IMG/VR virus record: IMGVR_UViG_2740892422_000001
Coordinates: 1-13,704 of that record
Length of the DNA stretch: 13,704 nucleotides
Reading direction: 5' to 3' (one strand)
From: a virus
Lineage: Duplodnaviria > Heunggongvirae > Uroviricota > Caudoviricetes
The position numbers and the translations under genes are program-made. Shown here in pieces: positions 1 to 13,704 of the stretch (the stretch's first letter is position 1; the number at the start of each line of letters is the position of its first letter). The notes beneath the pieces were generated by a model. That model had not been told where the DNA came from, ran no database searches, and saw only the letters and a list, made by a program, of their open reading frames with translations.

Positions 1-20
1 CGAAGGTGAGTTGATGGCTC

Positions 21-332
21 ATGATGTCCCTCTGGGATGCGCTCCGGATGAATATGATGATCTCATATCAGGAACTTGTTCGCACCTTCCTTAACAAAAT
101 CGCAATGCTTGGAACTGAGAAGACAGCGGAAGCTGTGGGCGTTGATAAGTCGCAGATCAGCAGGTGGAAGAGGGACTGGATTCCAAAGTTCTCAATGCTG
201 CTTGCTGTTCTTGAATGGGGTGTCGTTGACGACGACATGGCTCGATTGGCACGACAAGTTGCTTCGATTCTCACCAATAAAAAACGCCCGGCGGCAACCG
301 AGCGTTCTGAACAAATCCAGATGGAATTCTGA
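21..332 (+). CDS. cII: cII-like transcriptional activator; C-terminal ~80 aa match lambda CII as I recall it, N-terminal ~23 aa unrelated
   Basis: ORF translation from LNKIAMLGTEKTAEAVGVDKSQISRWKRDWIPKFSMLLAVLEWGVVDDDMARLARQV...KKRPAATERSEQIQMEF matches lambda CII from memory, including the helix-turn-helix region. Upstream of ~nt 87 the DNA and the N-terminus MMSLWDALRMNMMISYQELVRTF do not match lambda. AGGTGA lies ~11 nt upstream of ATG 21. The true start is uncertain; in-frame ATGs also occur at 24, 48, 54 and 57. Confidence 0.7.
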   Translation: MMSLWDALRMNMMISYQELVRTFLNKIAMLGTEKTAEAVGVDKSQISRWKRDWIPKFSMLLAVLEWGVVDDDMARLARQVASILTNKKRPAATERSEQIQMEF

Positions 333-354
333 GGTCATTACTGGATCTATCAAC
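278..354 (-). ncRNA. oop: oop antisense RNA (lambda OOP), overlapping the 3' end of cII, with its intrinsic terminator
   Basis: Established lambda organisation: the 77-nt oop RNA is transcribed leftward from pO and overlaps the cII 3' end. On the - strand the GC-rich hairpin (RC of ~285-300, cggttgccgccgggcg) followed by a T-run (RC of 279-284) matches the known oop terminator. Coordinates are placed by offset from lambda and are approximate (+/- a few nt). Confidence 0.5.
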
Positions 355-359
355 AGGAG

Positions 360-392
360 TCATTATGACAAATACAGCAAAAATACTCAACT
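360..392 (-). promoter_or_regulatory. pO promoter for oop (-10 CATAAT, -35 TTGAGT on the - strand)
   Basis: Reverse complement of 355-395 reads ccgaagTTGAGTatttttgctgtatttgtCATAATgactcct: 17-nt spacer and -10 ending ~7 nt before the predicted oop 5' end. Consistent with the known lambda pO location at the start of O. Confidence 0.4.
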
Positions 393-1264
393 TCGGCCGA
401 GGTAACTTTGCCGGACAGGAGCGTAATGTGGCAGATCTCGATGATGGTTACGCCAGACTATCAAATATGCTGCTTGAGGCTTATTCAGGCGCAGATCTGA
501 CCAAGCGACAGTTTAAAGTGCTGCTTGCCATTCTGCGTAAAACCTATGGGTGGAATAAACCAATGGACAGAATCACCGATTCTCAACTTAGCGAGATTAC
601 AAAGTTACCTGTCAAACGGTGCAATGAAGCTAAGTTAGAACTCGTCAGAATGAATATTATCAAGCAGCAAGGCGGCATGTTTGGACCAAACAAAAACATC
701 TCAGAATGGTGCATCCCTCAAAACGAGGGAAAATCCCCTAAAACGAGGGATAAAACATCCCTCAAATTGGGGGATTGCTATCCCTCAAAACAGGGGGACA
801 CAAAAGACACTATTACAAAAGAAAAAAGAAAAGATTATTCGTCAGAGAATTCTGGCGAATCCTCTGACCAGCCAGAAAACGACCTTTCTGTGGTGAAACC
901 GGATGCTGCAATTCAGAGCGGCAGCAAGTGGGGGACAGCAGAAGACCTGACCGCCGCAGAGTGGATGTTTGACATGGTGAAGACCATCGCGCCATCAGCC
1001 AGAAAACCGAATTTTGCAGGGTGGGCTAACGATATCCGCCTGATGCGTGAACGTGACGGACGTAACCACCGCGACATGTGCGTGCTGTTCCGCTGGGCAT
1101 GCCAGGACAACTTCTGGTCCGGTAACGTGCTTAGCCCGGCCAAACTCCGCGACAAGTGGACCCAGCTCGAAATCAACCGTAACAAGCAACAGGCAGTCGT
1201 GACAGCCAGCAAACCAAAACTCGACCTGACAAACACAGACTGGATTTACGGGGTGGATCTATGA
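365..1264 (+). CDS. O: Replication initiation protein O (lambda gpO)
   Basis: 299-aa ORF matching lambda O from memory ([40 protein letters not shown]...TDWIYGVDL). RBS AGGAG upstream. Stop overlaps the next ATG (ATGA at 1261-1264) as in lambda O/P. Contains the ori iterons. Confidence 0.97.
713..840. repeat. ori-lambda: four ~19-bp iterons (each an internal inverted repeat tccctc...gaggga) followed by an AT-rich unwinding region
   Basis: Seen directly: catccctcaaaacgaggga (712-730), aatcccctaaaacgaggga (732-750), acatccctcaaattggggga (~754-773), tatccctcaaaacaggggga (~780-799), then A/T-rich caaaagacactattacaaaagaaaaaagaaaagattattc (800-840). This is the classical O-binding origin inside the O coding sequence. 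Confidence 0.9.
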
Positions 1265-2079
1265 AAAACATCGCCGCACAGATGGTTAACTTTGACCGTG
1301 AGCAGATGCGTAGGATCGCCAACAACATGCCGGAACAGTACGACGAAAAGCCGCAGGTAAGCCGTATTCTGGCGATTACGACAAGCGATGAGAAATGCCT
1401 GCAGACTGCATCCAGAGATGATTTGGCATCAAAACTGAAAACCGCCGGATATTCACGCAGTTTTATTCAGTATTCATCGGGTAATAAATACGCTGCGTTA
1501 TCTGCATTTGGCCGGGCATTCACGGTTAATTTCAATGGCAGTAATACCGCGATTACGCTCAAGTTTAAGCATGAGCCGGGGGTCGGGTATGAAACACTGA
1601 CAGTCAGCCAGGCATCGGCACTTGATGCAAAAAACTGCAATGTGTTCGTGTACTACCAGAATGATACAGCTATCCTCCAGCAGGGAGTGATGGCTAACGG
1701 CGATTTCTTTGATGAACGCCACGGCCTGGACTGGTTACAGAATTATGTGCAGACCAGCCTCTATAACCTGCTTTATACCAGCACCACGAAAGTTCCCCAG
1801 ACTGAAGCCGGTATTACCCGACTGTTATCAAATGTTGAAAAATCACTGGATCAGGCCGTTCAGAATGGACTGATTGCTCCGGGCGTATGGAACGGGGGCG
1901 ACCTTGGTCAGTTGTCATCAGGTGACACACTGCCCAAAGGTTATTACGTATACGCTCAGCCGCTGGATGAACAGGCTCAATCAGAACGTGAAGCCCGTAA
2001 GGCTCCGGTGATTCAGGCTGCAATAAAACTTGCAGGCGCGGTTCATTACGCTGACGTACAGATTAACGTTGTTCGCTAA
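1261..2079 (+). CDS. In-frame fusion ORF: lambda P N-terminal ~32 aa joined to the C-terminal ~240 aa of a tail-sheath-like protein
   Basis: First 32 aa ([33 protein letters not shown]) match lambda P; at nt ~1359 the sequence diverges and the remainder ([12 protein letters not shown]...[45 protein letters not shown]) resembles a C-terminal sheath domain by composition and by its position immediately upstream of a tube gene. Sheath proteins of this type are about twice this length, so the N-terminal half appears to be missing. The sheath assignment is from memory, not an alignment. Confidence 0.55.
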
Positions 2080-2089
2080 GGGGAAGTGA

Positions 2090-2530
2090 ATGTCTACCTA
2101 TTCTTTTATGGATGTCACTGCGACGCTGACCGGGCCGACAGGTTCGATTGACCTCGGGTACGGTTCGGCAAGTTCTGAAGAGGGGATTGTGGTTGCGATG
2201 GGCGGTCCTAAAAACACCATGACCATCGGTGCTGATGGCGAAGTGATGCACAGTCTCCATGCAGATAAAAGCGGGACGATTACCGTTAACCTTCTGAAGA
2301 CATCACCGACAAATAAAAAATTGTCGCTGGCGTATAACGCACAGAGCCAGTCTTCTGCCACATGGGGGAATAACGTTATCGTGATCCGCAACAAGATCAG
2401 CGGTGACATCATCACGGCACGCAGTGTTGCGTTCCAGAAACAACCGGATAACGCCAACGCTAAAACCGGTAATACGATGCCGTGGGTGTTTGACTGCGGC
2501 AAGATTGACCAGGTTCTCGGGGAGTTTTAA
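2090..2530 (+). CDS. Tail tube protein (Mu gpM-like)
   Basis: 146-aa ORF directly after the sheath-like ORF and before the chaperone and tape measure genes. RBS AGGGGAAG upstream of ATG 2090. Size and position are typical of a myophage tube protein. Confidence 0.6.
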   Translation: MSTYSFMDVTATLTGPTGSIDLGYGSASSEEGIVVAMGGPKNTMTIGADGEVMHSLHADKSGTITVNLLKTSPTNKKLSLAYNAQSQSSATWGNNVIVIRNKISGDIITARSVAFQKQPDNANAKTGNTMPWVFDCGKIDQVLGEF

Positions 2531-2533
2531 TGC

Positions 2534-2986
2534 ATGGAATTCGAAATTAAAGGCGTGAAATATCGCACGGCAAAACTCAGCGTTTTTGACCAGCTGAAAG
2601 TGACCCGCAAACTTCTGCCGGTGCTGGCAGGAATGATGTCAGATTTCGGGAGTATTCGCTCCCGTTTGCCTGCTGACGGCAAAATCGACACCGTGAAATT
2701 CGAACAGTTAAAACCGGTGTTTGAAACCATGCTCCCGCGTATCGCTGAGGAACTGTCTTCCCTGACCGAAGATGACACCGATGCGATTATTCATCCCTGT
2801 CTTGCGGTGGTATCGCGGCGTCATATGGACGGATGGGTGCCGGTATTTACCCAGGGTGAACTGATGTTTGATGATATTGACCTGCTGGTCATGCTGCAAC
2901 TGGTGGCGCGGGTGGTCGCCGATTCGCTGGGAAATTTTTTGCCTACACCCCTTACCAGCACGACGCAGAGCCTGCAACAGGGCTGA
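2534..2986 (+). CDS. Tail assembly chaperone (lambda G-like, upstream frame)
   Basis: 150-aa ORF between the tube and tape measure genes, RBS GGGGAG ~10 nt upstream. A slippery heptamer near its 3' end and an open -1 frame downstream (next feature) fit the conserved chaperone arrangement. Confidence 0.6.
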   Translation: MEFEIKGVKYRTAKLSVFDQLKVTRKLLPVLAGMMSDFGSIRSRLPADGKIDTVKFEQLKPVFETMLPRIAEELSSLTEDDTDAIIHPCLAVVSRRHMDGWVPVFTQGELMFDDIDLLVMLQLVARVVADSLGNFLPTPLTSTTQSLQQG

Positions 2987-3174
2987 CGTTTAACAGCCTG
3001 CCGGACGGGCTGTCCTACCTTCTCAATCCGGTTGACGCCGGGTTAATTCCTTATACAGCACTTAAAGATGGCTCTGTCGATTTGTATGACATTGCTCTCT
3101 TGAATGACCATCTGGCGGTAAAAGCGGATAACCAGCGACGCATTGAGAAATGGAGAGAGGATAATGAACGCTGA
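2534..3174 (+). CDS. Tail assembly chaperone -1 frameshift product (G-T-like): frame 0 from 2534 to the slip site 2929-2935, then the -1 frame to TGA at 3172-3174
   Basis: Seen directly: G_GGA_AAT heptamer at 2929-2935 (lambda G/GT uses G_GGA_AAG) followed by a T-run. The -1 frame is open from at least 2881 to 3174 and encodes a protein-like extension (...FNSLPDGLSYLLNPVDAGLIPYTALKDGSVDLYDIALLNDHLAVKADNQRRIEKWREDNER). The extension ends just inside the tape measure gene start, as expected. Confidence 0.5.
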
Positions 3175-5152
3175 AACTATTAAAGATTTCCTCGTCTCGC
3201 TTGGCTTCAGTGTGGATGATGCAGGAGCGAAAAAGTTCGGTTCTGTCCTCGCCGGTACAACTGCAAATGTCATCAAAATGGGGCTGGCTGTTGAAGGAGC
3301 TGCGCTGTCCGTGGTGGCCTTCACGGCTAAGATCGCCTCCGGCCTGGATAATCTTTACTGGGCGTCACAGCGCACCGGCGCGACAGTCCAGGGAATTCAG
3401 TCTATTGGCTATGCGGTTTCGCAGGTTGGCGGCAGCGTGGACGCTGCGCGATCTTCTCTGGAAAGCCTCTCCCGGTTTATTCGTAACAATCCCGGTGCAG
3501 AAGGCTTTCTGAATCGCCTGGGCGTACAGACCCGTGATGCCAGCGGTAACATGCGTGACATGGCCGCTATTTTTACGGGCGTTGGACAGAAACTCAGCAG
3601 CATGCCGTATTACCGGGCTAACCAGTATGCGCAGATGCTGGGCATTGACGAAAATACCCTTATGGCGATGCGCCGGGGTGTGGGTGGCTTCTCCGGGCAG
3701 TACAGCGCAATGGCGAAAGCTATCGGCTTCAATGCTGACGAGGCGGCCAGAAGCTCCAACAAATTTATGACCTCCCTGCGTGAGTTTGGCGCGATGGCAG
3801 GCATGGCCCGTGACAAAATCGGCTCTAATCTTGCGGGGGGGCTTGCGGGTTCGCTGGACACCCTGCGCCGCCATATCCTGGACAACTTCCCTCGTATCGA
3901 GCAGACCCTGACGAAAGCCATAAAAGGCATTCTGGCGCTCGGGGATATTATCGGGCGGCTGTTCTTCAGACTGATTGAGGGGACATCAGGCCTTATCACC
4001 TGGTGGCAATCGCTGGATAAGCAAACGCGGGAGTTGATCTCGCTGTTTGGCGCACTGACGATTGCGCTGCGCATTCTGAACAGTACGTTCTGGATGTCGC
4101 CGATTGGCCTCATTACCGCGCTGGCGGCGGGTATTGCCCTCCTGTGGGAGGACTATCAGACCTGGAAGGAAGGCGGCGACAGCCTGATTGACTGGGGCAA
4201 GTGGAAACCGGAGGTCGATGCCGCGCTGAAGATGGTTCGTGACCTTAAAACGACCGTTAACGACCTGGTGAAAGCGCTGGCGAAACTGCTCAATATTGAC
4301 CCCAAATCATGGTCCCTGAAGTGGGATTTCAGCAACTTCATCGACCAGATGGGCGAATTCAGCAAAATGCTGAACATGATCGCTGACCTGCTCAACGCTA
4401 TCAAAGATGGCCGCTGGGCTGATGCCGTCAGCATCGGCAAACAGATACTTAATCAGGGCAGCGAAAATCCGTCAGCGATGCCGATGGTTACAGACAGCGC
4501 TAACAGTACTGCCGACTGGATTAAAGAGCACTGGGGATTAGATCCCCGCAGTGTGGGCCGGACGGTACGCGGCTGGTTTGGTGATGATGAGCCGGAACAA
4601 CATGCACAGGCTACGAAACGAGGAGAACGGAATAACAATCCGGGAAACCTTAATTTTGCTGGTCAGGCAGGGGCTTCTCTTGAACGCCCGGGCGGGCGAT
4701 TTGCCAGATTTGAAACTGCCTTTGATGGATTACGGGCTCTTGCTCGTCAGTTAATGCTGTACGCCGGACGGGGAATAAACAGTGTGGAGAAAATTATCTC
4801 TACCTGGGCACCTGCGTCTGATAATAACAACACAACTGCGTATATCAGGGCTGTATCGCAACGACTGGGAGTGGATCCCCGGGCTGCCCTGAATATGAGC
4901 GATCCGCAAACCATGTCAGCATTGATGAGCAGCATTATCCAGCATGAGAATGGAAGAAATATCTATTCTCGGGAGCTGATTAATAAGGCTGCCGTGGCGG
5001 GAATTAGTGGCAAAGTGACAGAGGTTAACCAGCAGAATACCTACCACATTTACGGTGGCGGAGATCCGCACGCTGTCGGTAATGAGGTTGCACGTCGGCA
5101 ACAGTCTGCAAATGCTCAGGTCATGCGAAGTAATCAGGTGAGGGTGGGTTAG
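3164..5152 (+). CDS. Tail tape measure protein
   Basis: Long ORF (662 aa from ATG 3164; an alternative ATG at 3143 lacks an RBS) directly downstream of the chaperone pair. GGAGAGAGG RBS. Alanine/glycine-rich helical N-terminal part, a hydrophobic segment (LISLFGALTIALRILNSTFWMSPIGLITALAAGIALLW) and a distinct C-terminal globular region. Position and composition are typical of a tape measure protein. Confidence 0.85.
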   Translation: MNAETIKDFLVSLGFSVDDAGAKKFGSVLAGTTANVIKMGLAVEGAALSVVAFTAKIASGLDNLYWASQRTGATVQGIQSIGYAVSQVGGSVDAARSSLESLSRFIRNNPGAEGFLNRLGVQTRDASGNMRDMAAIFTGVGQKLSSMPYYRANQYAQMLGIDENTLMAMRRGVGGFSGQYSAMAKAIGFNADEAARSSNKFMTSLREFGAMAGMARDKIGSNLAGGLAGSLDTLRRHILDNFPRIEQTLTKAIKGILALGDIIGRLFFRLIEGTSGLITWWQSLDKQTRELISLFGALTIALRILNSTFWMSPIGLITALAAGIALLWEDYQTWKEGGDSLIDWGKWKPEVDAALKMVRDLKTTVNDLVKALAKLLNIDPKSWSLKWDFSNFIDQMGEFSKMLNMIADLLNAIKDGRWADAVSIGKQILNQGSENPSAMPMVTDSANSTADWIKEHWGLDPRSVGRTVRGWFGDDEPEQHAQATKRGERNNNPGNLNFAGQAGASLERPGGRFARFETAFDGLRALARQLMLYAGRGINSVEKIISTWAPASDNNNTTAYIRAVSQRLGVDPRAALNMSDPQTMSALMSSIIQHENGRNIYSRELINKAAVAGISGKVTEVNQQNTYHIYGGGDPHAVGNEVARRQQSANAQVMRSNQVRVG

Positions 5153-5739
5153 TGGATATTCTCTCTACACTTTTTCATCAGCAGAGCAGAAAAATAGGAA
5201 TGATTGTTCCCAGTGTTGTTATTTCAGAGAAGCATACAGATATGCTTGAAATAACCGAGCATCCGGTAGAGGTCGGGGCCGCTGTCGCTGATCATGCCTA
5301 TAAAAAACCGTCAGAAGTGGTGATGGAGGTTGGTTTCGCCGGTGGCGGCGCATTGCTGGATTTTGCCAGTAACCTGACGGCTACCAGCCTGCTCGGCCTG
5401 AGTCCTCAGCAGACGTATCAGGAGCTACTGGATCTGCAGGAAAGCCGTATCCCCTTCGATGTGGTAACCGGTAAACGGCTGTACAGCAACATGTTGATCC
5501 GGGCGCTGGAAGTGACGACGGACAAGACAACCGAAAACGTCCTGTCCGCCGTCCTCACCCTGAGGGAGGTCATTATCTCCCGGACACAGCAGATTACCGT
5601 CGCGGATAAAACCAACATGAAGGAAGGGGCCAGCACGTCGGCGGTACAGAACAGCGGCAACAAAACCACAAAACCTCCAGATACTTCACTGCTGAAAAGC
5701 ATCACGGGTAACGTGGCGTCATTACTGGGGGGCGGCTAA
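5152..5739 (+). CDS. Tail/baseplate protein, family not resolved
   Basis: 195-aa ORF with GTG start overlapping the tape measure stop (TAGTG), RBS GGTGAGGGTGG. It sits between tape measure and hub genes where Mu-like modules carry distal tail proteins. Assignment by synteny only. Confidence 0.45.
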   Translation: MDILSTLFHQQSRKIGMIVPSVVISEKHTDMLEITEHPVEVGAAVADHAYKKPSEVVMEVGFAGGGALLDFASNLTATSLLGLSPQQTYQELLDLQESRIPFDVVTGKRLYSNMLIRALEVTTDKTTENVLSAVLTLREVIISRTQQITVADKTNMKEGASTSAVQNSGNKTTKPPDTSLLKSITGNVASLLGGG

Positions 5740-6041
5740 TGACAATTCAGGAAATTCCGCTGACAGCGGACAACCAGCAGTTCAGCATCGTCCTGGGTGG
5801 TGTCACCTGGCGGATTAGCATCATATGGCGCGATCTGTACTGGATTATGGACCTGCAGAACGACAGAGGGGAGCCGGTAATCTCCGGTATTCCTCTCGTC
5901 ACTGGTGCTGACCTGCTGGCGCAGTACGCCTGTATGGGGCTTGGTTTTAAGCTGGTGGTGGTCTGTGATGACAACACACAGGATTACCCCACAAAAACTG
6001 ACCTGGGCGGTCGCAGCCATTTACTGGTATCAACGGAGTAA
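5739..6041 (+). CDS. Small tail/baseplate protein, family not resolved
   Basis: 100-aa ORF with ATG overlapping the upstream stop (TAATG), translationally coupled within the tail operon. Assignment by synteny only. Confidence 0.4.
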   Translation: MTIQEIPLTADNQQFSIVLGGVTWRISIIWRDLYWIMDLQNDRGEPVISGIPLVTGADLLAQYACMGLGFKLVVVCDDNTQDYPTKTDLGGRSHLLVSTE

Positions 6042-6043
6042 GC

Positions 6044-7105
6044 ATGTCACAGAACTGGATGAGACATTTCGAGCTGCAGCTTGTGGACGGGAACGGTCAG
6101 GGAATTGAGCTAAGTGATTTTAAAGTCACCTTTACGATCGACTGGTTCAACATCAGCAGCGCGTCCCGGGTAGGGACTATCAAAATTTATAACCTCTCGG
6201 CAGATACTGTGAACCGAATCACCGGGCAGGAGTTTTCGAAAGTGCGTCTGATTGCCGGTTACGACGGTATCGCGCCGGAGGTGTCGGCAAGCGACGTCGG
6301 GACCGTGCGGGAAGTTGACGCGGCGGACGTGGGTCAGAGTGATGGCCGCAACTACGGACTGATTTTCAGCGGTGAAATTCGCTACTCGGTCACAGGAAAA
6401 GACAGTCCGGTTGATTCCTACGTCCTGATTCAGGCAGCAGATACTGATCTGGCTTTTGCCACCAGTATAACCTCACAGACGCTGGCTGCCGGTTACACGG
6501 TCGCTGATGTAAACCGTGCGCTGATGAAAGACTTCGAAGCCAAAGGCGCGACCGAAGGCCTGACGCCTGAAATGCCTGCTACTGTATTCCCCCGGGGGCG
6601 GGTACTCTTTGGCATGACGCGGCATCTAATGGATAACGTAGCCGGGCAATGTGGCGCAACATGGCAATTCGTGGACGGTCAGCGCCAGATGGTGGCGAAT
6701 AACGAATATGTTCATGAAGCGATTGTGCTCAACAGCGCTACCGGGCTTATTGGCATGCCGCAGCAGACTATCGGTAACGGCGTAAACGTCCGCGCGCTTA
6801 TTAATCCGAACATCCGGGTTAACGGACTTATTCAGCTGGATCAGGCTTCCGTGTATCGTACCGCCTTGTCGAACAACGATATTGCGATGGCTGGTGGTCA
6901 GATCACCGACCAGAACACGGATGGAAATATCACGCTAAGCGGCACCACATCGCAGCCTGCCAGCATCGCAACGGATGGCGTTTATATTGTGCGCGGGATT
7001 ATGTACACTGGCGACACAAGGGGCCAGGCGTGGTACATGGATATGATGTGCGAAGCGCGTGGCGCGGCGGATCTGTATACGCGATCGGCTTTGCAAAGGG
7101 GATGA
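6044..7105 (+). CDS. Baseplate hub-like protein (Mu gpP / P2 gpD-like by position and size)
   Basis: 353-aa ORF, RBS ACGGAG, located after the tape measure and distal tail proteins and before the spike and wedge genes. Family assignment is inferred from synteny and size. Confidence 0.5.
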   Translation: MSQNWMRHFELQLVDGNGQGIELSDFKVTFTIDWFNISSASRVGTIKIYNLSADTVNRITGQEFSKVRLIAGYDGIAPEVSASDVGTVREVDAADVGQSDGRNYGLIFSGEIRYSVTGKDSPVDSYVLIQAADTDLAFATSITSQTLAAGYTVADVNRALMKDFEAKGATEGLTPEMPATVFPRGRVLFGMTRHLMDNVAGQCGATWQFVDGQRQMVANNEYVHEAIVLNSATGLIGMPQQTIGNGVNVRALINPNIRVNGLIQLDQASVYRTALSNNDIAMAGGQITDQNTDGNITLSGTTSQPASIATDGVYIVRGIMYTGDTRGQAWYMDMMCEARGAADLYTRSALQRG

Positions 7106-7108
7106 GCA

Positions 7109-7450
7109 ATGAGGGGTATTATTTTTCTGTTAGCTGTCTTTTCTGCGTGCAGCGCGTGGGCGGATGGCTTCACGGTTAAATGCGGTGGCTACACTATGGT
7201 TGCAAACCAGGGCGAGTTATCGACTATCAACGGTGAAAGAGTTACCTCTCAAAAAATCACCGAACTGGGTACCAATGGTTTGAAAGTAGACATGGGGCTT
7301 ATGCCTGCCAAAGACGGTAACAACTACGGCTTTGAATACATTCGTCGCCCTGGTACCGAAACGCGATTCCTGAATGTCCAGCTTCTGCAGAACAGCATGG
7401 ATGCGCCGAAAATCATCGGATCTTTCCCTTGTAAAAAAGTGGCTGGGTGA
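7109..7450 (+). CDS. Small secreted protein or lipoprotein (113 aa) with N-terminal signal peptide; accessory (moron-like) gene
   Basis: N-terminus MRGIIFLLAVFSACSAWADG has a positive n-region, a hydrophobic core and an AWA-like signal peptidase I site; an alternative lipobox-like FSAC is present. The start is coupled to the hub gene stop (RBS GGGGATGAG). GC content looks lower than in the flanking tail genes. No structural-protein counterpart is expected at this position. Confidence 0.6.
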   Translation: MRGIIFLLAVFSACSAWADGFTVKCGGYTMVANQGELSTINGERVTSQKITELGTNGLKVDMGLMPAKDGNNYGFEYIRRPGTETRFLNVQLLQNSMDAPKIIGSFPCKKVAG

Positions 7451-7476
7451 AGGTAACCTGAAATTCGTAACGCCTG

Positions 7477-7515
7477 AAAAACAACAAAATGTGCTCTAAA
7501 AACTGTTGTTTTTTG
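7477..7515 (+). terminator. AT-rich hairpin followed by a T-run (weak intrinsic-terminator-like element or regulatory inverted repeat)
   Basis: Perfect 10-bp inverted repeat aaaaacaaca (7477-7486) / tgttgttttt (7504-7513) with a 17-nt loop and trailing T-run, 27 nt after the signal-peptide gene stop. The stem is A/T-only, so terminator strength is doubtful. Confidence 0.3.
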
Positions 7516-7543
7516 AGACGAGCGATTACACTGCACTGACTTT

Positions 7544-7572
7544 TTGATGGTGGATTGCCATCGATATGCTAC
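7544..7572 (+). promoter_or_regulatory. Candidate sigma70-like promoter for the two-gene cassette
   Basis: TTGATG (7544-7549), 15-nt spacer, TATGCT (7565-7570) in the 150-bp intergenic region; AGGA RBS ~12 nt before ATG 7600. This is a weak match to consensus and is a prediction only. Confidence 0.25.
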
Positions 7573-7599
7573 TTCATTAAAGCCAGGAATAACTAAAAC

Positions 7600-8331
7600 A
7601 TGAGTTTAGCGCAGCCAAAATCAGGAGAACTGTTAGATCTTCTGACTCCTTCATTAACTAAGGGTGAAAACCTTCTGAGTGAGTTTGAAATCCATCGAAT
7701 CATTCGTGAAGCGAAGAAACTACCTGAACGTTATCAGGGGCTATCAATTGAAGGCTTAGCTAAGCTTGTTCTTGGTGAAATAGATGAAGGATGTTCACTC
7801 TGTGAGCGGGGGTTGAGAATAGCGCCTAACGATCCAGTTTCTTTTTGTAACTATACGATTGCGCTGCGTAACTTAGGTTTGCATGCTCGCCAGTATGTGA
7901 TGATTCAGAAAGCATCTGATTCACTTAATCCAACGATATTGGCTGAGGTTGCTACAATTTCTGCATACTGGGTTGATATCGATTTGCTTGAAAAGGTGAT
8001 GCCGATGCTAACTGCAATGGAAGTACCGCGCCCTGAAGATATGGGCAAATGGTATGACACGCTCAATTATCTGCATACCCAAAAAGATCATGCTCAGGAG
8101 CTAAAAACTATTGGGCGGCTCATGATGAACGTTGCAGAAAAGTACCGCGCTCGTCTTGCTGGCGCTCATGCTTTTTATGTAATGTCAGAACTTGATACGC
8201 TGTTCGTTGAAGTCAAAACAGACGATCCAGTGCTTCTTTCGCAGATGAATAATGCCTTGGCTGATGAGATTATTATTGCGGGGCTTGCGGATTCAGAATG
8301 CGTCGGATGCTTTGAAGCCGGGGAACTCTAA
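7600..8331 (+). CDS. Hypothetical protein A of the accessory two-gene cassette (243 aa); TPR-like helical repeat signature and two CxxC pairs
   Basis: ORF with AT-richer codon usage than the flanking tail genes. ERGLRIAPNDPVSFCNYTIALRNLGLHARQYVMIQKA fits a TPR-like consensus. CSLC near residue 65 and CVGC near the C-terminus could form a Zn site. No recognisable phage structural family. Confidence 0.7.
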   Translation: MSLAQPKSGELLDLLTPSLTKGENLLSEFEIHRIIREAKKLPERYQGLSIEGLAKLVLGEIDEGCSLCERGLRIAPNDPVSFCNYTIALRNLGLHARQYVMIQKASDSLNPTILAEVATISAYWVDIDLLEKVMPMLTAMEVPRPEDMGKWYDTLNYLHTQKDHAQELKTIGRLMMNVAEKYRARLAGAHAFYVMSELDTLFVEVKTDDPVLLSQMNNALADEIIIAGLADSECVGCFEAGEL

Positions 8332-8759
8332 TGTCGGTTGAGCATACCTGTTTTCTTGAATTGGCTAAGCATTCCCTGGCTCTAAACGGTGAGATGTGGA
8401 CGAGAAATGCTATTAGCCGAGCATACTATGGTATGTACCATTCCGCCTTACGGATCACCAACAATCTGGTACCGACCGCTACACAAGATGGTGAAAAACT
8501 AAAAGGTGGAGTTCACATGCGAGTCTATACGGCCTTTTGTAGTGGTGAGGCAGCTGCACTTAACGATGTTGATGTTAACGCAGTAAAGAAAATCGGCGTT
8601 AAACTGAAAATGACGCATGCCCAACGTGTTAATTCTGATTACAAGCTTGAGCGGAAAATCAACCGGATTACCGCGAGAAGTGTAATTCTGGATGCGGAAG
8701 AGGTCGATGCAATCGTTAATCAATTACTGAAGATTGGTGATGACTCGTTAACTGCATAA
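8331..8759 (+). CDS. Hypothetical protein B of the accessory two-gene cassette (142 aa); small helical protein with an R-x6-H segment (HEPN-like possibility, unverified)
   Basis: ATG overlaps the stop of protein A (TAATG), RBS GGGGAA, so the two are translationally coupled. Segment NAISRAYYGMYHSALRI contains R-x6-H and resembles the first helices of HEPN-type domains, but the canonical motif placement is not confirmed. Followed by a strong terminator. Confidence 0.7.
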   Translation: MSVEHTCFLELAKHSLALNGEMWTRNAISRAYYGMYHSALRITNNLVPTATQDGEKLKGGVHMRVYTAFCSGEAAALNDVDVNAVKKIGVKLKMTHAQRVNSDYKLERKINRITARSVILDAEEVDAIVNQLLKIGDDSLTA

Positions 8760-8779
8760 GCTGAAATTTCTCAAAATTC

Positions 8780-8808
8780 AAACCCGCCACTTGGCGGGTT
8801 TTTTGCTT
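8780..8808 (+). terminator. Rho-independent terminator closing the accessory cassette
   Basis: GC-rich stem aaacccgcc (8780-8788) / ggcgggttt (8793-8801) with a 4-nt loop, followed by tttttgctttc. It lies 21 nt after the protein B stop and immediately before the RBS (GGAG) of the spike gene. Confidence 0.75.
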
Positions 8809-8823
8809 TCTGGAGCCTACTAA

Positions 8824-9576
8824 ATGGCAGTATCTGACCAGACCCGCAGCGGCGACCTTGCCGAAACATTTAAATCTGAACGGGAAACAACAAAGAACCA
8901 GATCCGTGTCGCCTTGCCTGGCATTGTTCAGTCATTCGCTCCTGATGCGGTGACGGCGGTTGTACAGCCTGCTATCCGTTACGTTGAAATTGATAACGAC
9001 GGCAACCGCATTACCAAAAATTACCCATTGCTGGTGGATGTGCCAGTGGTATTCCCGCGTGGCGGAGGCTGTACGCTAACGTTTCCAGTTAAAGCCGGTG
9101 ATGAATGTTTGGTGATTTTTGCCGATCGTTGTATTGATTTCTGGTGGCAGAGTGGCGGGATACAGGAGCCGGTCGATGACAGAATGCATGATTTATCGGA
9201 TGCGTTTTGTATTGTCGGTCCCCAGTCGCAGGCAAGGAAGATTAGCGGTATTAATACCAGTGCCACACAGTTGCGTAGTGATGACGGCAGCACCTATTTT
9301 GAGCTTAATCCTGATACCAGGAAAATTAAAATTGTCGCTCCGGGTGGTCTTGATGTGGTTGCCCCTCTGGCTGATTTTTCTGAGAAAGTAACCATTCATG
9401 GCCTGTTAACCTGGATGGGGGGCATGGTGGGGTCTGTTGTTTCTGGTGTGGCTTCAAAAATCACTGGTGTTGTTGAGTTTTTGGGTAGCGTGAAGGCTAA
9501 CGGCAAGCCAATCGATAATACGCACACTCATGGTGGTGTTCAGCGCGGTGGAAGCAGTACCGACGGGGTAAACTGA
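8824..9576 (+). CDS. Baseplate spike protein (gpV / Mu gp45-like)
   Basis: 250-aa ORF. The C-terminal region contains HTHGG (an HxH motif typical of the metal-binding spike apex of gpV/gp5-type proteins). Position is immediately upstream of gp25/W-like and baseplate J genes. Confidence 0.75.
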   Translation: MAVSDQTRSGDLAETFKSERETTKNQIRVALPGIVQSFAPDAVTAVVQPAIRYVEIDNDGNRITKNYPLLVDVPVVFPRGGGCTLTFPVKAGDECLVIFADRCIDFWWQSGGIQEPVDDRMHDLSDAFCIVGPQSQARKISGINTSATQLRSDDGSTYFELNPDTRKIKIVAPGGLDVVAPLADFSEKVTIHGLLTWMGGMVGSVVSGVASKITGVVEFLGSVKANGKPIDNTHTHGGVQRGGSSTDGVN

Positions 9577-9929
9577 TGCGATACAGACGTGAAGACGCCG
9601 ATGGCGATTACACCTTTGGCAGCGGTGATGACACCTGGCTGATTAACTCACCGGATGCCGTGGCACAGGCGGTAAAAACGCGATTCGAATTGTGGTATGG
9701 GCAATGGTTTCTCGACACCACCGAAGGGACTCCGTGGATCCAGTCCGTACTCGGTAAGCAGAAGCCGGAAACCTACAACCTGGCGATCCGTAAGCGCATC
9801 CTCGAAACGCGGGGCGTTAAATCAATCCTCTCTTTCAATACGACGGTGGATACCACGACCCGACGTGTCATGTTTTCCGCTGAAATCGACACTCTTTATG
9901 GAATAACGACTGTTACATCGGAGGCGTAA
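9576..9929 (+). CDS. Baseplate wedge protein (GPW/gp25-like, Mu gp46-like)
   Basis: 117-aa ORF, start overlapping the spike stop (TGATG). Size and position between the spike and baseplate J genes are typical of the gp25/W family. Confidence 0.65.
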   Translation: MRYRREDADGDYTFGSGDDTWLINSPDAVAQAVKTRFELWYGQWFLDTTEGTPWIQSVLGKQKPETYNLAIRKRILETRGVKSILSFNTTVDTTTRRVMFSAEIDTLYGITTVTSEA

Positions 9930-11128
9930 TGGCTCTGAACCTTGATTCTCTCGGTTTATCTGCAAAGGTAACCGCGGAGGGGATCAGTGCGCCTGATTAT
10001 CAGACGATACTCAGCACCCTGATTAGCTATTTTCAGCAGATTTATGGCAGTGATGCCTACCTCGAACCGGACAGCAAAGACGGCCAGATGGTGGCTCTGA
10101 TGGCGCTGGCGATTCATGATGCCAATAATACTGCGATAACTGTCTACAACTGTTTTTCACCGGCAACCGGCTATGGGGCTGCACTGACCAGTAACGTGAA
10201 AATAAATGGTATTTCACGTAAAGGTGCGACGAACTCTACGGTTGATTTGCTTCTTACAGGAACTGCCGGAACAACCATCATTAATGGCAGCGTGAAAGAC
10301 AGTAATAATGTGATATGGCGTTTGCCTGCTTCAGTGGTGGTCGGCGTGGATGGTACAGTGATGGCGACCGCAACATGTTCTGTCAGTGGTGCAGTGGCGG
10401 CGCTGGATGGAACTATCACTGAAATTAATACGCCAACCCGTGGCTGGGTTTCGGTAACCAATCCTGCTGCGGCTACTGTGGGCACTCCGGCAGAAACTGA
10501 TGCGGAGTTACGTATCCGACAGTCGCAAAGTGTTGCGTTGCCATCAATAACCCCATTTGAAGCACTGGATGGTGCTGTTTCTAATGTTACCGGTGTAACC
10601 CGCCACAAACTCTATGAAAACGATAATGGTTCGGAGGACGGTAACGGGTTACCGCCACACTCTGTTGCTGTAATTGTGGATGGCGGTGATGTGACGGATA
10701 TTGCTCAGGCTATCAGAGGGAATAAAGGCCAGGGGACAGCCACTCACGGTACAACATTCGTTACGGTTCCGGATAAATACGGCAATCCCCATGTAATCAA
10801 ATTCTCGCGTTCCAGTGATGTGCCTGTTTATGCCCGGATTAAATTAAAAGTTTTTACGGGTTATACCTCACAGATAGGGCAGCAGATCCAGCAGGCTATT
10901 TCCGACTATATCAATAGTCTGATGATTGGTGATTCGGTCCTTTTAAGTCGCATTTACTCACCGGCGAATCTTGGCGTGGTGAGTGGCGGGAATGCACGCT
11001 ATTACGATATTCAGGAACTGACGATTGGGAAATCCCCGGGGGCTTTGTCGTCATCAAACATTGATATCAGATACAACGAATCCGCGTCCTGTACCCCGGA
11101 AAATATCGTTATAACGGTGGAGTCATGA
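9929..11128 (+). CDS. Baseplate J-like protein (Mu gp47 / P2 gpJ family)
   Basis: 399-aa ORF, ATG overlapping the upstream stop (TAATG). Size and synteny (after the gp25-like gene, before the gp48-like and tail fiber genes) fit the baseplate J family. The intact length contrasts with the split J remnants I recall in E. coli e14. Confidence 0.8.
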   Translation: MALNLDSLGLSAKVTAEGISAPDYQTILSTLISYFQQIYGSDAYLEPDSKDGQMVALMALAIHDANNTAITVYNCFSPATGYGAALTSNVKINGISRKGATNSTVDLLLTGTAGTTIINGSVKDSNNVIWRLPASVVVGVDGTVMATATCSVSGAVAALDGTITEINTPTRGWVSVTNPAAATVGTPAETDAELRIRQSQSVALPSITPFEALDGAVSNVTGVTRHKLYENDNGSEDGNGLPPHSVAVIVDGGDVTDIAQAIRGNKGQGTATHGTTFVTVPDKYGNPHVIKFSRSSDVPVYARIKLKVFTGYTSQIGQQIQQAISDYINSLMIGDSVLLSRIYSPANLGVVSGGNARYYDIQELTIGKSPGALSSSNIDIRYNESASCTPENIVITVES

Positions 11129-11805
11129 GCAAATACACCGAACTAATCACGAACTACCACGCCACCAAACCTAAATTTCTTGCACATGTTGATCTGATGA
11201 CCCGGCCGCTTATTGATGTTGCGGCTGCCACCAGAGGGCTGATTACTGCATTTGATATTGACTCTGCGGTTGGTGTGCAACTTGACATTCTGGGATTGTG
11301 GATCGGACGTAGCCGTGTTGTCAGCCAGCCTATTTCAGGTGTCTATTTCAGCTGGGATACCGACGGGCTTGGATATGATCAGGGTGTATGGCAGGGGCCA
11401 TACGATCCTGATTCCGGATACATGTACCTCAGCGATGAAACTTATCGTGTCATCCTTAAAGCGAAGATTGCGATTAATAACTGGGACGGACGGAATGATT
11501 CGCTTCCGGCAATTCTTGACGCGGCAACAGCAGGATCCGGACTGCGAATGCAGATAGTCGATAACCAGGACATGACGATATCGGTCTGGGTCTTTCCTGA
11601 TACTGATATTTCAGATGTATCGCGTGAGTTAATTGCGGCAATTAAACAGGGGTATCTCACAGTAAAAGCCGCCGGGGTATGGGCGGGTGGCATTGAAACA
11701 CCTTCGGTGGAAACCCCATCGGAAGGCTCAAAATTTTTTGGTTTTGATATGGATAACGAATTCATCAGTGGTTTTGATGTAGGAGCATGGGGAGTATTAC
11801 TCTGA
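11125..11805 (+). CDS. Baseplate/tail-fiber-proximal protein (Mu gp48-like; the family I recall as DUF2313/YmfQ)
   Basis: 226-aa ORF coupled by ATGA overlap to baseplate J. It occupies the position of Mu gp48 between baseplate J and the tail fiber. Confidence 0.65.
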
Positions 11806-12599
11806 TGGCGAAAAATGACTTTAAAGCGTTTGCAACGGATCGAAATGCCAATGTTATATCGCAGGAGGAATGGGAAGCGTTGCCCGCGCTTTTATCTGGA
11901 TTTACAGCAGGGAAAGCCTCCAGTGCGCAAGTCAATAAGGTTATTCGGCAGGCCAGCTTTATTGCTGCAGCTCTGGCCCAGTTTGTAAGTGACAAAACGC
12001 AACGGGATGTACTTGATAATGGTGATCTGCCCGGTTTTGTTGAATTGCTGGGATCGGGGTTTGCTGTTGAATACCTGAGCCGCAAGAATCCGTTTGGCGA
12101 TATCAAATCGGACGGCACGGTGAAAACGGCTCTCGAAAACCTTGGTTTGGGAGAAGGTGCTCCAGCTATTGGCGTTCCGTTCTTCTGGCCCTCCGCGGCA
12201 ATGCCAAATACTGTAATCGACAGCTGGTCCGGTATGGTGTTTTTGAAGTTCAACGGGGCGAAATTTTCTGCCTCTGATTACCCTGTGCTGGCGAAAGTGT
12301 TTCCTTCGCTGGTATTACCTGAAGCCCGCGGTGATTTCATTCGTATCTGGGATGATGGGCGAGGGGCGGACAGTGGGCGAGCATTATTAAGCTGGCAGGC
12401 AGCAACAGCTTTATCGCAATTTGGCGGTAATTATCCAGAAGGGTCCGGCCATGCGATTGCTGATTACGATGGAATATCAGCACACCAACCAGGTTTCTCT
12501 CGATTTCAGTACACCAGTAACTCAGTAGGAGATGGTGTTAATTTTATTGCCGTCAGACCACGTAACATTGCATTTAACTTTCTGGTGAGGGCTAAATAA
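11805..12599 (+). CDS. Tail fiber protein (constant N-terminal part plus variable C-terminal part)
   Basis: ATG at 11805 overlaps the upstream stop (TGATG) and has GGGGAG ~10 nt upstream; the ORF track's 11787 start lacks RBS spacing. It is followed immediately by a tail fiber assembly gene coupled by TAATG. A hix/gix-like site lies at codons ~109-117. Confidence 0.75.
12131..12156. other. Candidate Gin/Hin/Pin-family invertase crossover site inside the tail fiber gene
   Basis: Sequence ctctcGAAAACCttGGTTTggGAgAA is an imperfect palindrome closely resembling hixL (TTCTTGAAAACCAAGGTTTTTGATAA) and gix as recalled; about 19 of 24 half-site positions match hixL. Its placement inside the fiber gene upstream of the fiber-assembly pair matches Mu G and P1 C segment architecture. 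Confidence 0.4.
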
Positions 12600-13192
12600 T
12601 GAAACCTGTTTTTGATGAAAATGGACTGGCTACAGTGCCGGGTGATATGCGTTGTTTTTATTATGATGCAGTAACGTATGAATATACGGGCTGGTCTGAT
12701 GAATATATTAATACTGGTGTAAGTATGCCCGCCTGTTCCACTGGTATTGACCCTGGCGAAAACATTCCGGGAAAAGTGGCTGTATTTACAGGTAAGGGAT
12801 GGAGCCATGAAGAGGACCATCGCAATGAGACTGTTTACTCAATCGAAAATGGCGCAGCTGTTACAGTGGATTATATCGGTGCCATCAAAAACGGTTATGT
12901 CACGCTTTCACCGTTAACGCCATATGATAAATGGGATGGTGAGAAATGGGTGACAGATACTGAGGCACAACACAGTGCCGCAGTAGAAGCGGCAGAAGCA
13001 CAGCGCCAGTCACTGATTGATGCAGCAATGGCTTCCATTAGTCTGATTCAGCTGAAATTACAGGCCGGGCGGAAACTGACGCAGGCAGAAACAACCCGGC
13101 TTAACGCTGTGCTGGATTACATTGACGCGGTGACGGCAACAGATACCAGCACCGCGCCGGATGTCATCTGGCCTGAACTGCCGGAGGCGTAG
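12599..13192 (+). CDS. Tail fiber assembly protein (Tfa / Mu U-like)
   Basis: 197-aa ORF. The C-terminus LNAVLDYIDAVTATDTSTAPDVIWPELPEA carries the conserved C-terminal motif of the tail-fiber-assembly family. Start coupled to the tail fiber stop. Confidence 0.8.
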   Translation: MKPVFDENGLATVPGDMRCFYYDAVTYEYTGWSDEYINTGVSMPACSTGIDPGENIPGKVAVFTGKGWSHEEDHRNETVYSIENGAAVTVDYIGAIKNGYVTLSPLTPYDKWDGEKWVTDTEAQHSAAVEAAEAQRQSLIDAAMASISLIQLKLQAGRKLTQAETTRLNAVLDYIDAVTATDTSTAPDVIWPELPEA

Positions 13193-13604
13193 GCCATTCA
13201 ATATCTGGCGCACCGGAAGTATCGACCAGCTCCAGTGCGTCCAGATAATCCAGCCACAAATTATATTGCGCCAGTTCCTCACCTTTCAGGCGACCAATCG
13301 CCGCTTTACCAGGCCATTGTTTACTGTTCATATAATCGTTGGCCTGATTAATCAGTTGCTGCTTTTCCAGTTCGGCTGCAGCAATCTGTTCCTCATGTGT
13401 TGGTGGTGGAATTTCAGACCATGCAGGAAAACCATTTTCTCCAGCGATACGGATTTTTCCTTTCGGCGGTAATCCGGAAAACTCAATATACACCTGCTCA
13501 TCAACTTCGACAGCATCATCTGGCCATGAGTCAGCTTGAATGTAATCCTCTTTCATCTCCAGCGGATAGAAAGAGTTTGTAGTCGCGGAATATATGTAAT
13601 TCAT
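13164..13604 (-). CDS. Alternative tail fiber assembly protein (Tfa', Mu U'-like) on the opposite strand
   Basis: 146-aa - strand ORF whose C-terminus (NLWLDYLDALELVDTSGAPDIEWPTPPAVQAR) carries the same family motif as the + strand Tfa. Its 3' end overlaps the + strand tfa 3' end by 29 bp (convergent). Confidence 0.8.
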   Translation of the reverse strand: MNYIYSATTNSFYPLEMKEDYIQADSWPDDAVEVDEQVYIEFSGLPPKGKIRIAGENGFPAWSEIPPPTHEEQIAAAELEKQQLINQANDYMNSKQWPGKAAIGRLKGEELAQYNLWLDYLDALELVDTSGAPDIEWPTPPAVQAR

Positions 13605-13625
13605 TTTTCAGGTGATGCTGCCAAC

Positions 13626-13704
13626 TTACTGATTTAGTGTATGATGGTGTTTTTGAGGTGCTCCAGTGGCTTCTGTTTCTATCAGCTGTCCCTCCTGTTC
13701 AGCT
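13626..13704 (-). CDS. 3' end of a - strand ORF entering from beyond the window (probable alternative tail fiber variable domain)
   Basis: The - strand frame is open from the window edge to TAA (RC of 13626-13628), encoding ...AEQEGQLIETEATGAPQKHHHTLNQ*, and ends 22 nt upstream of the Tfa' start. Only 25 codons are visible, so identity is inferred from position. Confidence 0.3.
   Translation of the reverse strand, partial: AEQEGQLIETEATGAPQKHHHTLNQ

Follow-up and report, generated by a model that had tools for sequence, protein, structure and literature searches.

What is a coupled pair of AT-rich genes doing between the baseplate hub and spike genes of a phage tail operon? The question is raised by a stretch of 13,704 nucleotides (nt) from a virus of the Caudoviricetes (IMG/VR record IMGVR_UViG_2740892422_000001, positions 1 to 13,704; hereafter the window), in which two open reading frames (ORFs) of 243 and 142 amino acids (aa), here called genes A and B, lie between hub and spike. 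A preliminary description of the window had taken these two ORFs, coupled by TAATG, for moron or hotspot cargo and not for structural genes. Their coordinates were confirmed (Table 1), with the stop codon of A and the start codon of B overlapping by 1 nt within the TAATG. We consider it somewhat probable (roughly 60%) that the cassette formed by A, B and their leader (~7438-8779) is a mobile moron module in the myovirus-type tail cluster of a temperate Escherichia coli phage, resembling a toxin–antitoxin system and acting in abortive-infection defence.

Results

The slot between hub and spike is a cargo hotspot

Across eight aligned slot variants, homology on the left stopped at ~7437, inside the last codons of a 113-aa gene that follows the hub gene, and homology among variants resumed on the right at 8780 with a hairpin, the slot being limited by the conserved 3' end of the 113-aa gene and by the AACCCGCCACCCGGCGGGTTTTTT hairpin. 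The variable stretch between these junctions (7438-8779) has a GC content of 0.433, the minimum among 248 sliding windows of equal size, against 0.506 elsewhere in the window, and GC at third codon positions (GC3) is 0.38 in A and 0.41 in B against 0.42-0.64 in the other genes of the window; composition is not uniform, and the pair is AT-richer than its neighbours as had been claimed. The slots of 68 IMG/VR contigs, chosen by a spike at least 88% identical, contained 21 clusters of unrelated cargo, all with a GC content of 0.34-0.44, and one slot was nearly empty (138 bp). Backbones in which hub, 113-aa gene and spike were 95-99% identical to those of the window held unrelated cargo. This behaviour, together with the mobility of the pair as a unit (below), bore out its description as cargo. 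That the proteins might be conserved baseplate components was contradicted by comparison of related tail modules: the flanking tail genes are present in 353 of 5,426 complete E. coli genomes, and only ~32 of the 353 carry this allele.

The 113-aa gene was mosaic, with 27-100% identity among loci carrying identical or related A–B pairs while the hub stayed at 96-100%, which indicates that recombination breakpoints fall upstream of the slot as well.

Protein B has a HEPN fold with a non-canonical set of conserved residues

The AlphaFold model of B (mean confidence score, pLDDT, 91.7) was all-helical and contained, with high confidence, the four-helix up-down bundle of the HEPN fold, in agreement with the earlier view of B as a small, helical, HEPN-like protein. 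The R-x6-H segment on which that view had drawn (R30-x6-H37) is present and invariant, but is located on helix 2, away from the canonical HEPN motif position. The conserved Rx4-6H before the last core helix is not present in B, where the position reads R99-V-N-S-D103-Y104, without a histidine; R99-x3-D103-Y104 is the same 'R...DY' as in AF0298. Among 34 relatives of B gathered by a pattern spanning residues 25-33 only, with the conserved E/H/R/D/Y residues lying outside that pattern, E21, H62, R99, D103 and Y104 were invariant (34/34) and H37 was kept in 31/34. Conservation of the polar residues spans relatives from Enterobacterales to Archaeoglobales.

In AF0298-type HEPN-T proteins and in AbiV the motif histidine has been lost, often to D, and a conserved histidine N-terminal to the motif has been proposed for an alternative active site (Anantharaman et al. 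2013, PMC3710099). The residue set of B (R99/D103/Y104 with H37/H62) matches this alternative-histidine site, and R30-x6-H37 would supply the alternative histidine, not the canonical motif. On the basis of its HEPN fold, these alternative histidines and the reported activity of AbiV as a ribonuclease (RNase) in phage defence (bioRxiv 10.1101/2024.05.05.592566), B is regarded as a probable RNase.

The close family of B comprised 29 relatives at E <= 1e-35, with identity down to 48%, the named ones all from Enterobacterales; some carry the JGI label 'UPF0332 family', from this single labelling source. No Pfam family was reached by B at E <= 1, the HEPN models searched including PF05168 and those of LA2681 and AbiU2 type. 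A direct sequence search of the PDB with B gave no match, and the B profile reached AF0298 there at E 0.11 only. In PADLOC-DB v2.0.0, B reached HEPN_IX at E 0.0094, which was not significant, and a diverged B allele reached it at E 1.6e-4, over the motif only. One 243-aa metagenomic protein (P0022), encoded on a 2.1-kb contig, carries an 89%-identical stretch covering 65% of B next to FAD/NAD-binding Pfam domains, and is probably a chimera created during assembly or gene calling.

Protein A is a TPR-repeat protein of a small family

The model of A (pLDDT 90.5) consists of helical repeats (residues 7-181), in which tandem helix-turn-helix TPR motifs were found, followed by a small beta-beta-alpha-beta domain (186-240) for which no match was found. 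Relatives of A are all ~243-260 aa long, with identity down to 38%, and those with names come from Enterobacterales. The family is small, with 25 clusters at E <= 1e-30: in an exhaustive HMMER search of 1.84 billion representatives, ~50 of the top 150 matches were full-length and the remainder were generic TPR proteins covering ~residues 42-112 only. Two uncultured siphovirus proteins in BFVD share the complete A fold (TM score 0.65-0.68). Pfam gave no nucleotidyltransferase match to A, the PADLOC match to PDC-M71B (E 0.037) was not significant, and a direct PDB sequence search returned only a spurious TPR match.

The TPR-like repeats and the two CxxC pairs reported earlier for A are both there, but its candidate zinc site (CxxC...CxxC) did not hold up. 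Among close relatives C234 alone is invariant, many homologues having other residues in place of C65, C68 and C237, and no CxxC cysteine is conserved across the wider family; as the cysteines are not conserved, a zinc site in A is unlikely.

A and B are paired, co-diverge and move as a unit

TPR+HEPN pairs, recognised with local profile hidden Markov models, made up 6 of the 21 cargo clusters and 27 of the 68 loci (40% of slots). The six pair alleles (A+B, in aa: 243+142, 243+140, 257+126, 256+131, 257+131 and 266+123) have mutual identities down to ~15-20% for A and ~25-30% for B. In all 58 loci in which tblastn detected A, A was followed by B, with small stop/start overlaps or gaps. The identities of A and B to the window proteins co-varied (rank correlation, rho 0.975), A always being the more diverged. 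Flank and cassette identity were loosely related, and A alleles 31% identical to that of the window were found between flanks 95-99% identical.

The pair was also present in at least five other phage structural-gene contexts: 3' of the tape measure gene of a lambda-like siphovirus (Lelliottia), between the major tail protein and chaperone/tape measure genes of another siphovirus, between tube-region genes and an antirepressor/tape measure in a different myovirus (Serratia and IMG/VR contigs), between the tape measure and a DNA-circulation gene in a Mu-like tail (Aeromonas), and beside a Rap1a gene and the terminase in a podovirus-like element (Brenneria). Ewingella and Klebsiella carry it in the homologous slot. 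Where its phage contexts were examined, the pair had the same orientation as the virion structural genes. In the Brenneria element (locus L054, 5603-6115) a gene of the Rap1a family, resembling type VI secretion immunity genes, lies immediately 5' of the pair, which suggests a multi-cargo accessory island beside the terminase.

A profile of B found 44 loci among 100,044 species genomes. TPR-type partners recurred in Morganella, Proteus, Xenorhabdus, Yersinia, Shewanella, Vibrio, Alteromonadaceae, Glomeribacter and Gallionella. The Vibrio pair has a portal-like gene on one side and P2 replication gene A on the other, which places it in the gpA-gpQ locus, a defence hotspot of P2 (Rousset et al. 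2022), and other distant pairs adjoin an integrase, stand near a TrbL gene or are found in the chromosome. Distant relatives of B (Acidobacteria, Planctomycetes, KSB1, Metabacillus, Archaeoglobales and Burkholderiales) are preceded by other partners, 100-270 aa long and without a Pfam family, which form two further classes, one of 100-160 aa (L088, L090, L091, L094, L096 and L100) and one of 160-270 aa in Burkholderiales (L069, L072, L073, L085 and L101). Pfam recognised no MNT nucleotidyltransferase among the upstream partners of the 44 loci (10 divergent partners scanned), and the 100-160-aa partners had no Pfam or PDB relatives. Homology of these small partners to the C-terminal domain of A was not supported: hhalign aligned the expected regions, but with a probability of 0.2% and E 0.27.

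The leader has weak promoter signals and the terminator belongs to the backbone

The intergenic region upstream of A (7451-7599) is long (149 bp), as the preliminary description had noted, but the candidate promoter placed there proved weak. No sigma-70 consensus promoter was found by a scan of the + strand of this region, and promoter scoring returned weak candidates only (TTGCCA-17-TAAAGC and TTGATG-15-TATGCT). All cassettes have long leaders (95-410 bp), unlike the tightly packed tail genes. A conserved element, cATTGAAA-N17-TACACTT, was found in the leaders of distant A–B cassettes from four phage contexts (L040 5877-5911, L042 5907-5941, L005 7880-7914 and L003 7182-7216), with a palindrome (TTACC-N5-GGTAA) in its spacer, and is plausibly a promoter with an operator. 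The window clade retains only ATTACACTGCA of this element (window 7521-7535), with a -10-like TACACT at 7527-7532, 67 nt before the ATG, and an AT-rich hairpin (7474-7517) stands where the -35/palindrome part is found in the distant cassettes. Judged from these signals, autonomous expression of the window allele in a lysogen is plausible.

The leader also contains an inverted repeat (7544-7564), TTGATGGT-GGATT-GCCATCGA, 36-56 nt 5' of the A start codon, and a similar repeat, TTGAAGGC...GCCATCAA, was seen in cassettes of 68-69% identity (L034 and L036); it may be a structure of the 5' untranslated region or an operator. A scan of the leader and the 3' end against Rfam found no known RNA, with sub-threshold, terminator-like matches in the leader only.

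At the other end, the strong intrinsic terminator described earlier is real (stem 8780-8801 with a T-run; -15.7 kcal/mol, z -4.7, with 0 of 200 shuffles folding as well), but it is not the cassette's own. The hairpin, AACCCGCCAC(C/T)(C/T)GGCGGGTTTTTTGCTTTCTGGAGCC, is near-invariant in 10 slot variants, including that of phage SEN34 and those with reverse-oriented cargo, and since it is kept whatever the cargo or its orientation it is a feature of the backbone or border. It insulates the slot, shielding the spike gene from cargo transcription. In lambdoid phages, late transcription antiterminated by Q is expected to read through a terminator such as this.

The window belongs to a lambdoid-type prophage with a contractile tail

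Positions 7400-8830 were 100% identical to chromosomal prophages in several E. coli strains, for example WAT (NZ_CP012380, 1144433-1145863). The WAT copy is a ~40-kb lambdoid-type prophage beside torT, which encodes NinG, a Q antiterminator, lysis, terminase and head genes, and has a contractile tail of the E217/Pam3/phiTE/SEN34 kind. The gene order, from PHROGs and RefSeq annotation, is tape measure/lytic transglycosylase, baseplate protein, plug, hub, 113-aa gene, A, B, spike, sheath initiator, then baseplate J and wedge (Table 1); PHROGs assigns both A and B to unknown function. The prophage end next to torT carries an XF1762-family gene and a 344-aa hypothetical gene.

Table 1. Features of the hub–spike region, in window coordinates. 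Functions of A and B are proposals.
Feature	Position	Strand	Basis or remark
Baseplate hub	6044-7105		PHROG 196
Left flank, 113-aa gene of the STY1065/STY2022 family	7109-7450	+	PHROG 3443; in all slot variants; last ~58 nt form the conserved left anchor
Cassette-specific leader	7438-7599	+	Junction mapping, folds, GC 0.376
Gene A, 243 aa, TPR-like repeats and C-terminal beta-beta-alpha-beta domain	7600-8331	+	Proposed partner (antitoxin and/or sensor) of B
Gene B, 142 aa, HEPN domain of AF0298/UPF0332 (HEPN-T) type	8331-8759	+	Proposed RNase toxin/effector with non-canonical active site
Intrinsic terminator, hairpin and T-run	8780-8811	+	Right slot border; directly 5' of the GGAG ribosome-binding site of the spike gene
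Right flank, membrane-puncturing spike/baseplate protein V-like gene	8824-9576	+	RefSeq annotation; NCBIfam phage_P2_V sub-threshold, E 9e-8

Besides the TPR+HEPN pairs, the slot was occupied in backbones 95-99% identical at hub, 113-aa gene and spike by a DUF2335 membrane protein, a DUF4282 membrane protein, a 190-aa protein with a YafO-family toxin, a 184-aa membrane protein with a weak PycTM match, a reverse-oriented DUF4236 protein, lipoprotein-like proteins and, in SEN34, a different 138-aa gene. A further cargo is a single protein of 170-173 aa with a canonical RNNLFHGG motif (L048 941-1453; 173 aa in L168), which had no Pfam or PADLOC match and is possibly a solo HEPN nuclease.

Some relatives have ~240 bp extra between the spike and sheath initiator genes (L036 7971-8215 and L043 7974-8217), an insert annotated in SEN34 as a 45-aa ORF (locus L052, 4387-4524), and in the window the two genes abut at 9576; a second variable slot, of smaller size, may lie here. 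The tail fibre and tail-fibre-assembly genes are followed by another assembly gene in reverse orientation and by a gp53-like fibre C-terminus (window 13164-13604, - strand; L001 25813-26688), which is the layout of an invertible host-range segment, and no invertase is annotated beside them.

Discussion

Relation to known systems

As the preliminary description had supposed, neither protein matches a named system: Pfam, NCBIfam and PADLOC (PADLOC-DB v2.0.0) gave no significant family for A or B. The proteins WP_000110002 and WP_000050470 and the gene pair are not mentioned in the literature searched, and their accessions were not found in the accessible part of the DefensePredictor supplements. 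No system with HEPN or TPR is described in the Tai paper, and where Rousset et al. 2022 refer to TPR or HEPN, other systems are meant. Read from its sequence features, the pair may be classed as a HEPN toxin system carried in a phage cargo hotspot.

The nearest comparisons each differ from it. In HEPN–MNT type VII toxin–antitoxin systems (SO_3166/SO_3165 and the Aphanizomenon HEPN/MNT pair) and in AF0298/UPF0332 HEPN-T systems, the usual partner is a nucleotidyltransferase, which in type VII systems AMPylates the toxin, whereas here it is a 243-aa TPR protein, and B lacks the Rx4-6H histidine. AbiV of Lactococcus is grouped with AF0298-type HEPN proteins, the motif histidine being missing and an alternative conserved histidine lying N-terminal to the motif (PMC3710099), but no sequence similarity was detected (no PADLOC AbiV match for B at E <= 1), and AbiV is ~200 aa long, has an antitoxin reported as RNA in place of a TPR-protein partner, and is not associated with phage tails. 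HepS of the Gifsy-1 prophage and Tha of Staphylococcus aureus prophages are experimentally established prophage HEPN abortive-infection nucleases which are inactive until a phage infects and are triggered by tail proteins, and which likewise raise the issue of how self-targeting is avoided. Those are single proteins with a canonical RX4-6H, located near replication/antirepressor or integrase regions and without a TPR partner, and no homology of A or B to HepS or Tha was detected. LA2681 (TPR fusion or operon) and AbiU2 (operon with a Sel1-repeat gene) also combine HEPN with a repeat protein and are conflict systems predicted from genomics (PMC3710099). They belong to different HEPN families in which Rx4-6H is conserved, and B gave no match to either model. 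To our knowledge, no family of LA2681 or AbiU2 type has been tested experimentally as a TPR-gated system.

The slot itself resembles other phage hotspots and morons (P2 gpA-gpQ and P4, Rousset et al. 2022; HK97-type morons; Tab in Pseudomonas tail modules) in having a fixed position in a conserved backbone, exchangeable low-GC cargo and a terminator as its boundary, but it lies within the baseplate block of an E217/Pam3/SEN34-like tail, a location for which no description was found in the literature searched.

How the cassette may act

The toxin–antitoxin-like, abortive-infection reading follows from the fold and residue conservation of B; from the obligatory pairing, translational coupling and co-divergence of A and B with faster evolution of A; from the strong allelic diversification within one slot; and from the company of the pair, with toxin and membrane-protein genes among the other cargo and a validated defence hotspot among the locations of its relatives. 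It is from this context that we infer a role in defence, and not in anti-defence or in addiction alone. In the proposed mechanism, B would be a HEPN-T ribonuclease-type effector with a relocated catalytic histidine (R99/D103/Y104 with H37/H62), probably active as a dimer. A, translated just 5' of B and coupled to it, would take the place of the usual MNT, binding B and holding it inactive, and its TPR surface would be the likely receptor for a signal from the infecting phage. Upon infection, A would be lost or re-arranged; RNA cleavage by the freed B would then abort the infection, so that the lysogen population is protected and with it the prophage.

Several observations weigh against this reading. 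The databases searched offer no family for either protein; the canonical Rx4-6H is missing from B, so that the predicted catalysis is not assured; A exceeds the typical size of an antitoxin, and no domain for DNA binding or enzymatic activity is recognisable in it; and the window lacks a convincing promoter for the pair, so that A and B may be transcribed only together with the late operon.

Alternative explanations

A plain addiction or stabilisation module, retaining the prophage by post-segregational killing and having no anti-phage role, would fit the coupled two-gene arrangement, the YafO-type toxin–antitoxin pair that occupies this slot in other prophages, and the candidate leader promoter of the distant cassettes, whose internal palindrome is as in autoregulated toxin–antitoxin operons. 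We consider this unlikely, since six strongly diverged alleles in one slot, with A evolving faster than B, look more like the product of an arms race, post-segregational killing is of little gain to an integrated prophage, and a distant pair lies in a validated defence hotspot. A little less probable still is a factor read with the late operon for the benefit of the phage's own lytic cycle, through counter-defence, shut-off of host RNA or late exclusion of co-infecting phages. For most counter-defence roles late expression would not be early enough, the phage can do without this cargo, in whose place toxin and membrane-protein genes are also found, distant pairs are known from outside phages (beside an integrase, near TrbL and in the chromosome), and the terminator directly 3' insulates the slot as in classical morons, all of which outweighs the strand shared with virion structural genes in the phage contexts examined and the lack of a consensus promoter in the window.

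The missing canonical histidine could also mean that the HEPN domain of B has no catalytic activity and serves as an adaptor for a ligand or RNA, in which case the A–B pair would regulate or act like a chaperone and have no part in toxicity; among HEPN families there are binders without activity (PMC3710099), and TPR proteins are often scaffolds. Inactive domains lack conserved polar residues, yet E21, H37, H62, R99, D103 and Y104 are invariant or nearly so in B, and this explanation appears less probable again. That A and B are baseplate or tail-assembly components would account for their position in the baseplate block on the late-gene strand, but its probability is negligible: the allele is sparse among the E. 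coli genomes that carry the flanking genes, siphovirus, Mu-like and podovirus-like modules contain the pair as well, HEPN and TPR folds are not structural, and near-identical backbones hold unrelated cargo or a mere 138 bp, on which ground a structural role was excluded.

Implications

The toxin–antitoxin-like defence reading can be extended, speculatively and with a doubtful prospect of being right in full, to a new family of prophage immune systems. The TPR protein would stand in place of a nucleotidyltransferase antitoxin and itself sense incoming phages directly, gating a non-canonical (E/H/H/R/D/Y) RNase, and the recurrent placement in tail modules on the late strand would be functional, with late read-through at induction boosting A for self-immunity and linkage to the phage's own tail alleles avoiding self-triggering.

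If the defence reading is true, the pairs would constitute a two-gene defence family that is abundant in Enterobacterales prophages and fills two-fifths of one tail slot in six diverged alleles, and HEPN-T toxins would be able to exchange their nucleotidyltransferase antitoxin for a repeat-protein partner. The occurrence of three unrelated, unannotated partner classes, from bacteria to Archaeoglobales, suggests a broader, uncharacterised superfamily of HEPN-T toxin–antitoxin systems. The slot would be a new, precisely bounded cargo hotspot in the baseplate operon, limited by a conserved terminator, which could be mined for further systems among a cargo that already includes the YafO pair, a putative solo HEPN and several small membrane proteins.

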